Shown here piece after piece: positions 4,477 to 44,111 of a DNA stretch of 55,392 nt. The position numbers and the translations under genes are program-made. The DNA is from Candidatus Aenigmatarchaeota archaeon (GTDB taxonomy: Archaea; Aenigmatarchaeota; Aenigmatarchaeia; QMZP01). The stretch covers positions 1-55,392 of the forward strand of contig JAWCLA010000002.1 of the NCBI GenBank assembly GCA_039091855.1. Reading direction: 5' to 3'. The notes under the pieces are model-generated. The model ran no database searches, was not told the origin of the DNA, and saw only the letters and a program-made list of their open reading frames with translations. How positions within the stretch are numbered: the first letter of the stretch is position 1; every line of letters begins with the position of its first letter.

Positions 4477-4612
4477 GCCTCAGTAGCTCAGCAGGTTCCA
4501 GAGCGGCGTCTTATAGAGAGTGACAAGGCGCCTTTTGGTTGTAGAGAGCACTCGGCTGTTAGCTTTAATGGCTGATACCGAGTGGTCGAAGGTTCGAGTC
4601 CTTCCTGAGGCG
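4477..4612 (+). tRNA. tRNA-Asn (anticodon GTT) with two introns
   Basis: Hand-built cloverleaf. Acceptor GCCTCAG (4477-4483) pairs with CTGAGGC (4605-4611); discriminator G4612. D arm GCTC...GAGC. Anticodon stem CTCGG (4551-4555) / CCGAG (4578-4582). Loop is CTGTTA plus A4577, with GTT at 4558-4560. A 15-nt intron (4562-4576) sits at the canonical 37/38 site. Variable region TGGTC. T arm GAAGG TTCGAGT CCTTC (4588-4604). A further ~45 nt (about 4505-4549) interrupts the D-arm/position-26 region. Its exact boundaries are ambiguous because a GGTT..AGAGC segment is duplicated. The mature length comes to 76 nt. Confidence 0.75.
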
Positions 4613-4858
4613 TTTTTATAGCTTGTGTAGAAATCAAAGATAAATGTAAATAGCCGGATTCACACATAAGGTGGAAAAGAATGAAGACTTTGGCCAACAT
4701 AACCAAGTCGTTCTTCCAGAAACTTTTGACGACATTAACTAATATCATAAGTAGTATTCCTGGACTATCACAAGCGAAGGTTAAGTGAAAGATGCGAAAT
4801 ATGTTCTCCATCAAGTTGCAAAGTTATTGATGGGGTAAACTTTCAAAAGGCGAAGTTT

Positions 4859-5140: not shown

Positions 5141-5285
5141 GGGGTGATAGCTCAGTCCGGGAGAGCACATGGCTGAAGTTTAACTGTGGTATTTGATTTC
5201 AAAACCGCTTTACAGAAGTTACCATGGTGTCGTGGGTTCAAAATAAGCCATATTTGAAGTTTATATGAAAATCCCACTCACCCCA
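5141..5285 (+). tRNA. tRNA-Phe (anticodon GAA) with two introns (anticodon loop 37/38 and T-loop)
   Basis: Acceptor GGGGTGA (5141-5147) pairs with TCACCCC (5278-5284); discriminator A5285. D arm GCTC AGTCCGGGA GAGC. Anticodon stem CATGG (5168-5172) / CCATG (5222-5226). Loop CTGAAG (GAA at 5175-5177) plus A5221, split by a 42-nt intron (5179-5220). Variable region GTGTC. T stem GTGGG (5232-5236) / CCCAC (5273-5277) encloses 36 nt instead of 7. Read as TTCAAA...T, this implies a ~29-nt intron in the T-loop. The exon segment TTCAAA can pair with intron segment TTTGAA. Confidence 0.8.
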
Positions 5286-5286
5286 T

Positions 5287-5883
5287 ATGAAAAAGGCTTC
5301 AAAGGAAAATGAAAGGGGAACCAAGAAGACTGGAAAGGTTTTGGAATGCAGGCTCCTGGAAAACAAGCTTGTGATAGCAAAGGGGTTTGAAGAACTGATG
5401 CAAAAATCTTACGGAAAATACATAGGCGATGAAAATGACATTAGTAAAGGCAGGCTTGAGATTTCTTTTGTGGAGGCGCTTTATCTATTAGAAAAAGGAA
5501 AGATTAATATAAAGAAGGGTACAAAAAAGCTAAGTTTTAAGGAACTTATGGAATTTGGCATTCAGAGAGATAAAAGACTTCATGAGAAGTATATGGTATA
5601 CAGGGACATAAGGGAAAGGGGTCTTGTTGCTAAAACAGGGTTCAAGTTCGGCTGTGATTTCAGGGTTTACCAGAGGGGCGTAGGTGTAAAGAAGGGCCCT
5701 AAAACAGCATCAGAGCACACAAAATGGATTGTTTATACCGTTCCTGAGGATTATACGTGCTCATTTGCAGAGCTTTCAAGGGCTGTCAGGCTTGCTCATT
5801 CAATAAGGGCAAGGATGCTTTGGGCGATAGTTGACAATGAGGATAATGTCACATATTTCGAGGTTGTAAGGATAAAGCCGTAA
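5287..5883 (+). CDS. endA: tRNA-splicing (tRNA-intron) endonuclease EndA, homotetramer-like size class
   Basis: The C-terminal half aligns colinearly with my recollection of M. jannaschii EndA. Matching segments: VEALYLLEKG, LSFKEL, KYMVYRDIRERG, KTGFKFGCDFRVYQRG, EHTKWIV, VRLAHSIRARMLWAIVD, ending ...IKP. The ATG begins 2 nt after the tRNA-Phe discriminator base. Confidence 0.9.
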   Translation: MKKASKENERGTKKTGKVLECRLLENKLVIAKGFEELMQKSYGKYIGDENDISKGRLEISFVEALYLLEKGKINIKKGTKKLSFKELMEFGIQRDKRLHEKYMVYRDIRERGLVAKTGFKFGCDFRVYQRGVGVKKGPKTASEHTKWIVYTVPEDYTCSFAELSRAVRLAHSIRARMLWAIVDNEDNVTYFEVVRIKP

Positions 5884-5939: not shown

Positions 5940-6140
5940 ATGGGAAGAATAAAAAGCATTGCAGTGAAAAACCTTGGGGATGAGTTAATAAGGCTTCACG
6001 GAAATAAGTTCACTGAGGATTTTGAAAGGAATAAGAAGGTTCTGGATGAGATAAAAAAGATAAAATCCAAAAGGACAAGGAACATCCTTGCAGGATATAT
6101 AACAAAGCAGATGAAAAAGATAAAGAAAACCGGCATTTGA
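5940..6140 (+). CDS. rps17e: 30S ribosomal protein S17e (eS17)
   Basis: MGRIKSIAVKNLGDELIRLHGNKFTEDFERNKKVL matches the conserved eS17 N-terminus. Size of 66 aa is typical for archaea. Confidence 0.85.
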   Translation: MGRIKSIAVKNLGDELIRLHGNKFTEDFERNKKVLDEIKKIKSKRTRNILAGYITKQMKKIKKTGI

Positions 6141-6156: not shown

Positions 6157-7242
6157 ATGAGAGTAGAGGATTTTTTAGAAAAGCCGCTTGTTGTAAGCCC
6201 AGAAGACTCTATTAGCCGTGCAGCTTCCCTTATGTTTTCTAACAGGAAACATGAAGCTGTTGTAATGAAGAATGGCAAGTTTGTTGGAATTTTATTGGCA
6301 AGGGACCTAGTAAAAAGAAAGGTAAGCGACCCGCACAAAACGAAAATAAGTGGTTTTGTTGTTGACATAAACCCGTTTCTTCCAGGAACAGGAATAGAGG
6401 AGATAATAAATGGTTTTCTGGTTAACGATTACAGGGCAGTGCCTTTCAAAAACAACGGTAAAATAATGGTTCTTACCAAAACAGGTCTTTTGGGCATTGT
6501 TAAGGACAGCCCTGTTTTAAAAGACAAGTTTGCCGAGGATGTTATGAATTTCCCTTATTGTATAACAACAGAAGATTCGCTTTCAACCGCAAGGGCTGTT
6601 CTGAGGGATATGAACATATCAAGGGTTCCTGTTGTTAAAGAAGGAAAGGTTGAGGGTATTATTGATTATGTCGACCTTCTCGGGCCTGTGTTTAAAGGAG
6701 AGGTCAATAAGAGGGGCGAACCCGGAGAGGAGAGGACTCATATTGACAGCATACCCGCATCTTCCTTTATGAGAAAGGAGTTTCCTGTGGCAGAGCCTGA
6801 TGCGAGACTGTCATCTGTTATTGATTTGATTGTAAAAAACAATTCTGCTGTCATAGTGGAAAGAAATGGCAAGCTTTCTGGAATTGTGACGCCGGGGGAT
6901 ATTCTAAAGTTGTTCGGTAAGGAGGTAAGGGGAGCATACGTTACAATAAGCGGAATGCAGGAAGAGGATGATTTCATAAAGTCAGTCATATACAAGGAAA
7001 TAGAGAATTCTTTGAAAAAAATAAACAAAATCTATCCTGTTAACTATTTCGTTGCTCATGTTGACAAGTATAATGTAACCGGCAGGAGAGCAAAGTATTC
7101 GATAAGGGCAAGGGTTGCAACTCAAAAAGGATTCTTTTTTTCACACGATCACGGTTGGGATATAACAAAAGCGATAAAGGGCGTGTTGGAAAAGCTTGAG
7201 AAGGAGGTTATAAAAAGAAAGGAGAGGGAAAGGGGGATATGA
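6157..7242 (+). CDS. Protein with four CBS domains and a C-terminal HPF/RaiA (S30AE)-like domain
   Basis: Four successive segments of ~55 aa with CBS-like patterns (for example VGILLARDLVK, GIIDYVDLLG, SGIVTPGDILKLF). The last ~100 aa, VTISGMQEEDDFIKSVIYKEIENSLKKINKIYP..FVAHVDKYN..AKYSIRARVATQKGFFFSHDHGWDITKAIKGVLEKLEKEVIKRKE, follow the beta-alpha-beta-beta-beta-alpha pattern of ribosome hibernation factors. The stop overlaps the next gene (ATGA). Confidence 0.6.
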   Translation: MRVEDFLEKPLVVSPEDSISRAASLMFSNRKHEAVVMKNGKFVGILLARDLVKRKVSDPHKTKISGFVVDINPFLPGTGIEEIINGFLVNDYRAVPFKNNGKIMVLTKTGLLGIVKDSPVLKDKFAEDVMNFPYCITTEDSLSTARAVLRDMNISRVPVVKEGKVEGIIDYVDLLGPVFKGEVNKRGEPGEERTHIDSIPASSFMRKEFPVAEPDARLSSVIDLIVKNNSAVIVERNGKLSGIVTPGDILKLFGKEVRGAYVTISGMQEEDDFIKSVIYKEIENSLKKINKIYPVNYFVAHVDKYNVTGRRAKYSIRARVATQKGFFFSHDHGWDITKAIKGVLEKLEKEVIKRKERERGI

Positions 7243-43904: not shown

Positions 43905-44066
43905 GGGCCCGTAGCTCAGTAGGATAGAGCGGCAGCCTCCTATCAGGCCTTTTTCAAAAAAACCTGAACGGTCAAACCTTTACATTAACAAGGCAATCAG
44001 GACATACAAAAATGTCCTAAAATAGGAGGTAGCTGTAGGTCGTGGGTTCGATTCCCACCGGGCTCG
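43905..44066 (+). tRNA. tRNA-Arg (anticodon CCT) with an 88-nt intron at 37/38
   Basis: Acceptor GGGCCCG pairs with CGGGCTC (G2-U71 wobble); discriminator G44066. D arm GCTC AGTAGGATA GAGC. Anticodon stem GCAGC (43932-43936) / GCTGT (44032-44036). Loop CTCCTA (CCT at 43939-43941) plus A44031. Intron at 43943-44030. Variable region AGGTC. T arm GTGGG TTCGATT CCCAC. The intron 3' end, ATAGGAGG, can pair with the exon segment CCTCCTAT. Confidence 0.8.
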
Positions 44067-44111
44067 CTAAAATCTATCATACTAATAAAAAATCAAAAAC
44101 CAAGTATTATT

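Follow-up and report, generated by a model that had tools for sequence, protein, structure and literature searches.

Background

The tRNA-intron endonucleases (EndA, EC 4.6.1.16) cut bulge-helix-bulge (BHB) motifs of pre-tRNAs and leave 2',3'-cyclic phosphate and 5'-OH ends. Their catalytic triad, composed of Tyr, His and Lys, is according to reviews common to all four types of EndA (PMC6379350). Replacement of the Lys by Ala abolishes cleavage by the enzymes of M. kandleri (K334A; PMC5829648) and ARMAN-2 (K282A; PMC3488258). The gene considered here, endA of Candidatus Aenigmatarchaeota archaeon, is located on a stretch of 55,392 nucleotides (assembly GCA_039091855.1, contig JAWCLA010000002.1, positions 1-55,392), hereafter called the window, which represents 55 kb of the genome. 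Its product retains the Tyr and the His and carries Ala in place of the Lys. No report of a natural EndA devoid of the triad Lys was found in the literature.

Lineage-specific loops are known in several EndAs. In the epsilon2 enzyme of ARMAN-2 (4fz2, 9w2k) and in the crenarchaeal (alpha-beta)2 enzymes, a Lys carried by such a loop stands beside the catalytic centre and has been linked to the cleavage of relaxed or non-canonical BHB motifs (PMC3488258, PMC12397907). These recognition lysines (APE K44 in the CSL loop and, in ARMAN-2, K161 of the Y160-K161 pair in the ASL loop) belong to the N-terminal loop (L1/L2) and not to the segment that separates the catalytic Tyr from the catalytic His (PMC3488258, PMC12397907). 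Within the latter segment, Hirata et al. 2012 described loops in the vicinity of the triad, at residues 90-98 of the N. equitans enzyme and 240-247 of the ARMAN-2 enzyme (PMC3488258). Kaneta et al. 2018 named this Nanoarchaea/ARMAN-2-specific insertion L3, reported it in diverse DPANN lineages including EndAs of the alpha4 type, and associated it with disrupted tRNA genes (PMC5829648).

The endA product and its active site

The gene, its N-terminal domain and the active-site residues of its product are located as follows.

5287..5883, plus strand: endA, tRNA-intron endonuclease of 198 amino acids, of alpha4 size with an L3 loop (open reading frame listing, Pfam, TIGR00324, phmmer search of PDB, AlphaFold2)
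5353..5550, plus strand: N-terminal EndA domain, residues 23-88 (PF02778 tRNA_int_endo_N, 1.4e-12, above cutoff)
5668..5670, plus strand: Tyr128, catalytic Tyr (general base), equivalent to M. jannaschii Y115 (alignments to solved EndAs)
5716..5718, plus strand: His144, catalytic His (general acid), equivalent to M. jannaschii H125 (alignments; invariant among 120 close homologs)
5788..5790, plus strand: Arg168, bulge-base recognition Arg, equivalent to A. fulgidus R280 (hand count from K287 back to R280)
5809..5811, plus strand: Ala175 (codon GCA), at the catalytic-Lys column (HMMER alignments, homologs)

By fold and homology the protein is a member of the EndA family, and its active site departs from the definition of that family. 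The catalytic domain was recognised at residues 100-190 (Pfam PF01974 tRNA_int_endo, 9.7e-27, above cutoff), and the 198-residue protein scored 108 bits against NCBIfam TIGR00324 endA, for a cutoff of 59.6. The best PDB matches obtained with phmmer were M. kandleri 5x89, M. jannaschii 1a79 (3.8e-32), N. equitans 3iey_A and ARMAN-2 4fz2. An AlphaFold2 model was obtained with a mean predicted local distance difference test score (pLDDT) of 84.9 and a predicted template-modelling score (pTM) of 0.80, and its top Foldseek match was 1a79_A, with a TM score of 0.86 normalised on the target.

For examination of the triad, the protein was aligned using HMMER to five EndAs of solved structure (M. jannaschii 1a79, M. 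kandleri 5x89, N. equitans 3iey_A, ARMAN-2 4fz2 and A. fulgidus 3p1y). All five alignments run without gaps through the motif RLAHS[IV]R[K/A] and place Ala175 opposite K156 of M. jannaschii, K334 of M. kandleri, K133 of N. equitans, K282 of ARMAN-2 and K287 of A. fulgidus. An alignment artefact was rejected, as a MAFFT alignment is likewise gap-free across the motif, and a pseudogene or a sequencing error was rejected because the Ala is conserved clade-wide. Tyr128 is unchanged in 120/120 close homologs, and so are Arg168 and Arg195, the two residues of bulge recognition, which in the family are either two Arg or an Arg and a Trp; Arg195 probably corresponds to A. fulgidus R302, judging from the spacing, the A. 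fulgidus alignment stopping at query residue 183.

A preliminary description of this DNA, made from the sequence alone, had assigned the protein to the alpha4 size class, with equivalents of the Tyr and the His, Ala at the K156 column and a Tyr-His loop that was basic and 6 residues longer than in M. jannaschii. These readings were confirmed by alignment to the EndAs of solved structure, which revealed no Lys at the catalytic position, and by the structural match to 1a79_A; the three aligned pairs of segments that it had given for M. jannaschii EndA were also reproduced in the 1a79 alignment.

M. jannaschii EndA (alpha4) is the best alpha4 match of the protein in both sequence and structure. 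The two enzymes share a two-domain architecture and a size class, and conservation between them extends to the catalytic Tyr and His, the RLAHS.R motif, the C-terminal strand and an acidic loop L10. In contrast with M. jannaschii EndA, the window enzyme has Ala175 for K156, a basic L3 of 6 additional residues, and Lys44 for Asn37.

The L3 loop and Lys139

5671..5715, plus strand: L3 loop spanning residues 129-143 (QRGVGVKKGPKTASE), with 6 residues inserted by comparison with M. jannaschii (alignment to 3iey_A)
5701..5703, plus strand: Lys139 of the G-P-K motif, proposed replacement of the triad Lys (conservation and loop/Lys pattern)

The spacer between Tyr128 and His144 is basic and has 15 residues, against 9 in M. 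jannaschii. The segment GVGVKKGPKTASEH of the window protein pairs residue for residue with GVIPKKGKRSEREH of the loop of NEQ205, the catalytic subunit of N. equitans EndA (HMMER), so that the insertion is homologous to NEQ205 residues 90-98 and is an L3 loop. A basic-basic-G-x-basic motif is common to this L3 and to the L3 enzymes that have retained the Lys. The loop thus aligns with a published element and is not a novelty of this protein, and both L3 and the class of alpha4 enzymes bearing it should be considered as already known. Two points of the preliminary description were revised accordingly: the strict specificity of alpha4 enzymes is outdated, given the report of L3 in alpha4-type DPANN EndAs and its link with disrupted tRNA genes (PMC5829648), and the published recognition lysines, K44 and K161, sit in the N-terminal L1/L2 (PMC3488258, PMC12397907), a loop distinct from the Tyr-His loop into which it had suggested that a catalytic or recognition Lys may have moved.

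The window enzyme resembles NEQ205 (3iey_A) and the L3-bearing EndAs of DPANN archaea by its homologous L3, its DPANN host and the disrupted tRNA genes of that host, a context in which broad specificity has been described (PMC5829648). Unlike the window enzyme, NEQ205 keeps the triad Lys (K133), and it has R97 where the window protein has Lys139. NEQ205 has moreover lost L10 and needs the NEQ261 beta subunit, whereas the window protein keeps L10 and appears to self-assemble.

Distribution of the Lys-less active site

Among the closest database homologs (n = 120, 62-100% identity, several of them labelled Aenigmarchaeota), Ala occupies the Lys column in 120/120 and G137-P138-K139 is unchanged. 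A scan of GTDB was performed on one genome per species using alpha-specific patterns, and returned 80 loci, distributed as Tyr/His/Ala (72/80), Tyr/His/Thr (2/80) and canonical Lys (6/80). The 74 loci of the Ala or Thr type belong to Aenigmatarchaeota, to Nanohaloarchaea and, for one of them, to a genome labelled Micrarchaeota; all 74 carry an L3 loop with Lys five residues before the His (position His-5, that of Lys139). The 6 loci with the canonical Lys, which include Pyrohabitans, Parvarchaeota, Hydrothermarchaeota and Undinarchaeota, are all without L3. A metagenome scan gave 78 alphas, comprising 52 enzymes with L3 and Ala, Ser or Thr at the Lys column (loop Lys in 52/52) and 26 short-loop enzymes with Lys. 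In both scans, every short-loop enzyme had retained the Lys.

Every distinct Tyr- and His-containing catalytic domain gathered up to that point was then pooled, and the domains were sorted by loop and by the residue at column 175.

L3 loop with Ala, Ser or Thr at column 175: 237 distinct domains, with Lys at His-5 in 236/237
Short loop with Lys at column 175: 112 distinct domains
Short loop with Thr at column 175: 7 distinct domains
Long loop (>=13 residues) with Lys at column 175: 11 distinct domains, heterogeneous

The residue at column 175 of the Lys-less L3 domains is mostly Ala, rarely Ser or Thr. Among the 11 long-loop domains with Lys, the true L3 homologs (P0161, P0181 and P0222) carry Arg at His-5. 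A search seeded with these three returned 26 more L3 enzymes with Lys175, all of them G-x-R. Arg is consequently found at the position of Lys139 in all 29 homologous L3 enzymes with Lys175, as well as in NEQ205 (R97). The L3 enzymes therefore occur in two states, G-x-R with Lys175 and G-P-K with Ala175.

Positions fixed differently between the two types (V132, G137, K139, T145, I173, A175, W179 and R174) cluster around the active site; the Lys-type enzymes have Ser for T145, Val for I173 and Phe for W179. Over 236 distinct domains, with pairwise identities down to 36%, conservation reaches 97-100% at Y128, H144, R168, R174 and T145 and in the motifs around them, a pattern that points to strong selection on the endA product as a catalyst.

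In P0121, a protein of 360 amino acids, two EndA units are fused; each of them retains the Tyr and the His, with Ser at the Lys column, and the C-terminal one bears an L3-like loop (G-Q-K). This amounts to a homodimer-style arrangement of Lys-less units.

Interrupted tRNA genes of the window

4477..4613, plus strand: tRNA-Asn(GUU) with a D-arm intron of ~45 nt and a canonical intron of 15 nt, likely substrate (sequence; ARAGORN after in-silico splicing)
5141..5285, plus strand: tRNA-Phe(GAA) with a canonical intron of 42 nt and a T-loop intron of ~29 nt, likely substrate (ARAGORN after in-silico splicing; fold)
43905..44067, plus strand: tRNA-Arg(CCU) with a canonical intron of 88 nt, likely substrate (Rfam RF00005, 52.5 bits; ARAGORN with introns allowed)

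The three tRNA genes detected in the 55 kb are all interrupted, by five introns of which two (D-arm and T-loop) are non-canonical. With default settings, ARAGORN predicted no tRNA in the window and Rfam retrieved tRNA-Arg alone, the doubly interrupted tRNAs being missed. The tRNA-Phe was recognised by ARAGORN only once ~28-29 nt had been cut from the T-loop; the corresponding test of the tRNA-Asn D-arm intron is permissive, as it yielded many alternative calls. The D-arm and T-loop introns that the preliminary description had attributed to the neighbouring tRNAs were thus recovered. Introns in non-canonical positions are not expected from the literature to be cut by enzymes of the M. jannaschii type. 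As the interrupted tRNAs of this organism include such positions, an active endonuclease with a broad positional specificity is needed.

The 3' end of tRNA-Phe precedes the endA ATG by 1 nt. In at least 25 related loci, a similar tRNA 5' half was observed upstream of EndA, at a distance of 60-280 nt, and in several of them an intronless tRNA ends 2-22 nt from the EndA start (L012, L037, L055, L062, L016, L019 and L022). This arrangement suggests a conserved co-transcription of a tRNA substrate gene with its processing enzyme, and the endA mRNA might be leaderless and made by tRNA 3' processing.

Candidates for a compensating residue

Given that the canonical-Lys mutants of the M. kandleri and ARMAN-2 enzymes are dead, compensation is expected in the Ala175 clade. 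The most likely replacement cation is Lys139 of L3, and relocation of the Lys is the mechanism best supported by the comparison of sequences, although we place its probability at even or slightly lower. No residue other than Lys139 is invariant while also changing state together with column 175. The suggestion, already present in the preliminary description, that a loop Lys compensates for the missing residue is upheld to the extent that Lys139, being as invariant as Tyr128 and His144 across the clade, is the best available candidate for a cation that would reach the scissile phosphate.

Several observations weigh against this assignment. The two-state pattern looks like essentially one evolutionary transition, and represents a correlation rather than a statistic on independent events. 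The AlphaFold2 confidence of the L3 block is moderate (pLDDT ~67). Three small families of alpha4 size, represented by P0137, P0184 and P0195 (one of them labelled Diapherotrites), retain the Tyr and the His but have Thr in place of the Lys and no L3. The triad Lys seems to have been lost independently in these enzymes, without any obvious compensating residue, which implies that the Lys can be lost without a loop Lys and weakens the view that such a Lys is required. Arg at column 174 is present in 100% of the Ala-type clade, against 48% of the Lys-type enzymes. Finally, the L3 lysines of ARMAN-2 are dispensable: K241A and K244A leave cleavage unaffected, in an enzyme that retains its canonical Lys (PMC3488258).

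These observations feed an alternative, in which the enzyme is an active alpha4 and the lost Lys is compensated by Arg174 or by Lys44, or is not compensated at all, a slower catalysis by Tyr and His being sufficient; L3 would then serve RNA binding and broad specificity only. We consider this possible but rather unlikely. Its first candidate, Arg174, could be a real substitute in view of its fixation in the Ala type. Column 174 is however basic (Arg or Lys) as a rule already in canonical enzymes that still need the Lys, and the Lys-to-Ala mutants of M. kandleri and ARMAN-2 are dead despite the neighbouring Arg being kept (PMC5829648, PMC3488258). Arg176 was also tried as a substitute and rejected, the position being variable (R/Q/K/T/E/S).

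The second candidate is the following.

5416..5418, plus strand: Lys44 of the Y-G-K motif, secondary candidate for a compensating cation (site of the CSL/ASL (L1/L2) insertion in other EndAs)

Lys44 is Lys in 115/120 close homologs, and residues 41-55 were aligned by HMMER with the ARMAN-2 stretch that holds ASL residues 158-168; CSL K44 and ASL K161 are near the catalytic centre and essential (PMC3488258, PMC12397907). These lysines of the crenarchaeal and ARMAN-2 enzymes are additional to an intact triad, unlike the situation of the window enzyme. Lys44 was demoted as a substitute because its presence is not tied to that of Ala175: Glu or Asp takes its place in P0369-P0416, a large family of the Ala type, and it is also present in some enzymes with the canonical Lys (L074, L076), which indicates no specific coupling. 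The Thr-type enzymes without L3 also speak for this alternative, and the conservation of a basic L3 residue, as Arg, even in the presence of Lys175 suggests a role of the loop that is independent of Lys replacement. None of the residues proposed in this alternative combines, as Lys139 does, invariance with a change of state in step with column 175.

Subunit composition and paralogs

5833..5847, plus strand: acidic L10 loop (D183-N-E-D-N187), tetramer-assembly element (D183 in 120/120 and E185 in 113/120 homologs)

The L10 of the window protein, VDNEDN (in IVDNEDNVTYF), resembles the VDADGD of M. jannaschii, and an acidic L10 is kept in all solo alphas. A second EndA was searched for in the 55-kb window using a six-frame hidden Markov model search, which gave no hit below E = 0.8, and within 4 kb of the gene in 80 related genomes, where none was detected. 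The size, the domains and the acidic L10 are those of the alpha4 type, in which one kind of subunit, of ~170-200 amino acids, bears both catalytic residues and no beta paralog is present, and the window EndA is probably a homotetramer, an assignment for which the paralog check covers the 55 kb and these 4 kb in the 80 relatives. The catalytic subunits of (alpha-beta)2 enzymes are characterised by a degenerate L10 and an associated beta gene; here L10 is intact and no beta-like gene is adjacent.

Sister lineages possess a beta-like family of proteins (~170 amino acids), without His and without L3, in which Lys stands for Arg168, the catalytic-Lys column holds Ala, Thr or Ser, and L10 is acidic. 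Proximity to an alpha was determined in every context where the contig allowed the check, and the beta-like gene was found directly upstream of the alpha or at no more than 1.5 kb from it (L001, L084/85, L088/89 and 9 metagenome loci). The tandem beta-like and alpha genes occupy positions 331-1396 in L001, 5001-6061 in L084 and 5001-6061 in L088, and also occur in L091-L094, L099, L103 and L114. The partnered alphas are Tyr/His/Ala enzymes with L3 (G-P-K or G-K-K), and their L10 is degenerate or basic (VVSKDEKVKYF, IVNEECRVGYY, VVDKKGEVSYY and others). Such a distribution of L10 between beta and alpha is the classical signature of subfunctionalisation. The retention of an acidic L10 in the window EndA, compared with its degeneration in the partnered alphas, argues for self-assembly as an alpha4.

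In a rough neighbour-joining tree, whose deeper nodes are without support, the beta-like family (bootstrap 94) is placed beside a group formed by the partnered alphas and the nearest solo alphas (bootstrap 92), within the Ala-type group. As both tandem copies lack the Lys and have Ala at its column, the duplication took place after the loss of the Lys, and the heterotetramer architecture seems to have arisen independently in the tandem beta-alpha sub-lineage.

The preliminary description had proposed, as an alternative to a loop Lys, a partner subunit encoded elsewhere. The enzyme would in that case belong to the (alpha-beta)2 class, with a partner that provides structural elements or even the missing cation. 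The existence of the beta-like paralog in related lineages, and the use of an (alpha-beta)2 enzyme by N. equitans, a DPANN archaeon with L3 (PMC2761253), are in its favour, and the view of the genome is of 55 kb, so that a distant second EndA is conceivable; this last point counts against the homotetramer. On the other hand, the beta-like gene lies beside the alpha or within 1.5 kb of it in 9/9 checkable cases as well as in L001, L084 and L088, and the window has none. Two complete Aenigmatarchaeota chromosomes had no match among the best 120 beta-like matches, although this is a weak test. The paralogs are themselves without the canonical Lys, so that none of them can supply it, even where they exist. 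A partner of this kind is hence judged improbable.

It is still more improbable that the protein is a dead or repurposed EndA homolog with an RNA-binding or structural role, the introns being removed by a canonical EndA or another nuclease elsewhere: the Lys-to-Ala change does kill every EndA tested so far (PMC5829648, PMC3488258), but the Tyr, the His, both bulge-recognition Arg and the flanking motifs are invariant across a phylum-scale clade, the gene is the sole EndA found at a conserved locus in 74 genomes, the tRNA genes of the organism are heavily interrupted and require an active enzyme, and Ala is likewise present in the sole candidate for a catalytic subunit in the lineages with tandem beta and alpha genes. 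The absence of the catalytic Lys is a feature shared with the beta structural subunits (NEQ261, crenarchaeal beta, Sen15/Sen54). Unlike the window protein, in which the Tyr, the His, the substrate-binding Arg residues and L3 are invariant, those subunits lose the Tyr and/or the His and show little conservation near the active site, and the genuinely non-catalytic beta-like paralogs of the same clade lose His, L3 and Arg168.

Other features of the protein and of the locus

5287..5340, plus strand: N-terminal tail, residues 1-18, Lys-rich and of low confidence (pLDDT <50 at residues 7-12)
5425..5445, plus strand: insertion of 7 residues (47-53, GDENDIS) immediately following Lys44, private to this protein (homolog alignment)

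The length of the N-terminal tail varies across homologs, as indicated by gappy and variable columns in their alignment. The GDENDIS insertion is missing from 115-117/120 close homologs, the clade being without any N-terminal insertion of L1/L2 length and the 7-residue insertion being restricted to the window protein; it occupies the site of the CSL/ASL specificity loops of other EndAs. Downstream of endA are found a gene for ribosomal protein S17e (5940-6140) and a gene for a protein with CBS and S30AE domains (6157-7242). The neighbourhood is conserved in relatives (L084, L086), in the order Peptidase_M54, beta-like gene when present, EndA and CBS-domain protein.

Proposed mechanism and implications

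We favour, at a probability that we estimate as neither above nor below even, a homotetrameric EndA that is active and receives its transition-state cation from the loop Lys139. The single subunit would assemble as alpha4 through its C-terminal strand and its acidic L10 loop, and would act on BHB-type motifs of pre-tRNAs, including the D-arm and T-loop introns of the upstream tRNA genes. Tyr128 and His144 would function as general base and general acid, as in all EndAs, and Arg168 and Arg195 would bind the flipped bulge base. The third member of the triad, the Lys that stabilises the pentavalent phosphate, would have its role taken over, in a clade where Ala175 replaces it, by Lys139 of the G-P-K motif, carried by a loop predicted to lie next to the active site. 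According to this scheme, the basic residue of L3 may at first have been redundant, as is the Arg of those enzymes in which the Lys persists; the canonical Lys may then have become dispensable and been lost, with a change of the loop Arg to Lys and co-changes at Thr145, Ile173 and Trp179.

Three features appear to be new: the triad Lys is replaced throughout the clade, this replacement is coupled to an invariant Lys of the loop, and a secondary beta-alpha system has inherited the Lys-less state. The full proposition, namely that the catalytic Lys of a phylum-scale DPANN clade has moved to L3, that a cation borne by a flexible loop permits the use of relaxed BHB motifs, and that a beta-alpha heterotetramer inherited the site, is put forward tentatively, as somewhat less probable than its contrary. 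If true, it would represent a natural case of relocation of a catalytic residue, from column 175 to Lys139 of L3. L3 would also gain a function, since relaxed BHB motifs in the D-arm and the T-loop would become acceptable to an alpha4 enzyme whose cation is placed on a flexible loop, and the rewired site would have been inherited by a heterotetramer evolved independently within the clade.

The textbook-invariant Tyr/His/Lys triad of the archaeal and eukaryotic catalytic EndA subunits is broken in a large natural clade that depends heavily on tRNA splicing, and the reliance of this Ala clade on splicing shows that rewiring of the EndA active site is possible. These enzymes would be mislabelled as inactive by annotation rules in which the triad is mandatory. 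The clade also offers a handle on the function of L3, as it makes the hypothesis of a Lys139/Ala175 exchange testable. The finding bears, more generally, on the way in which substrate breadth may have co-evolved with fragmented tRNA genes in DPANN archaea.

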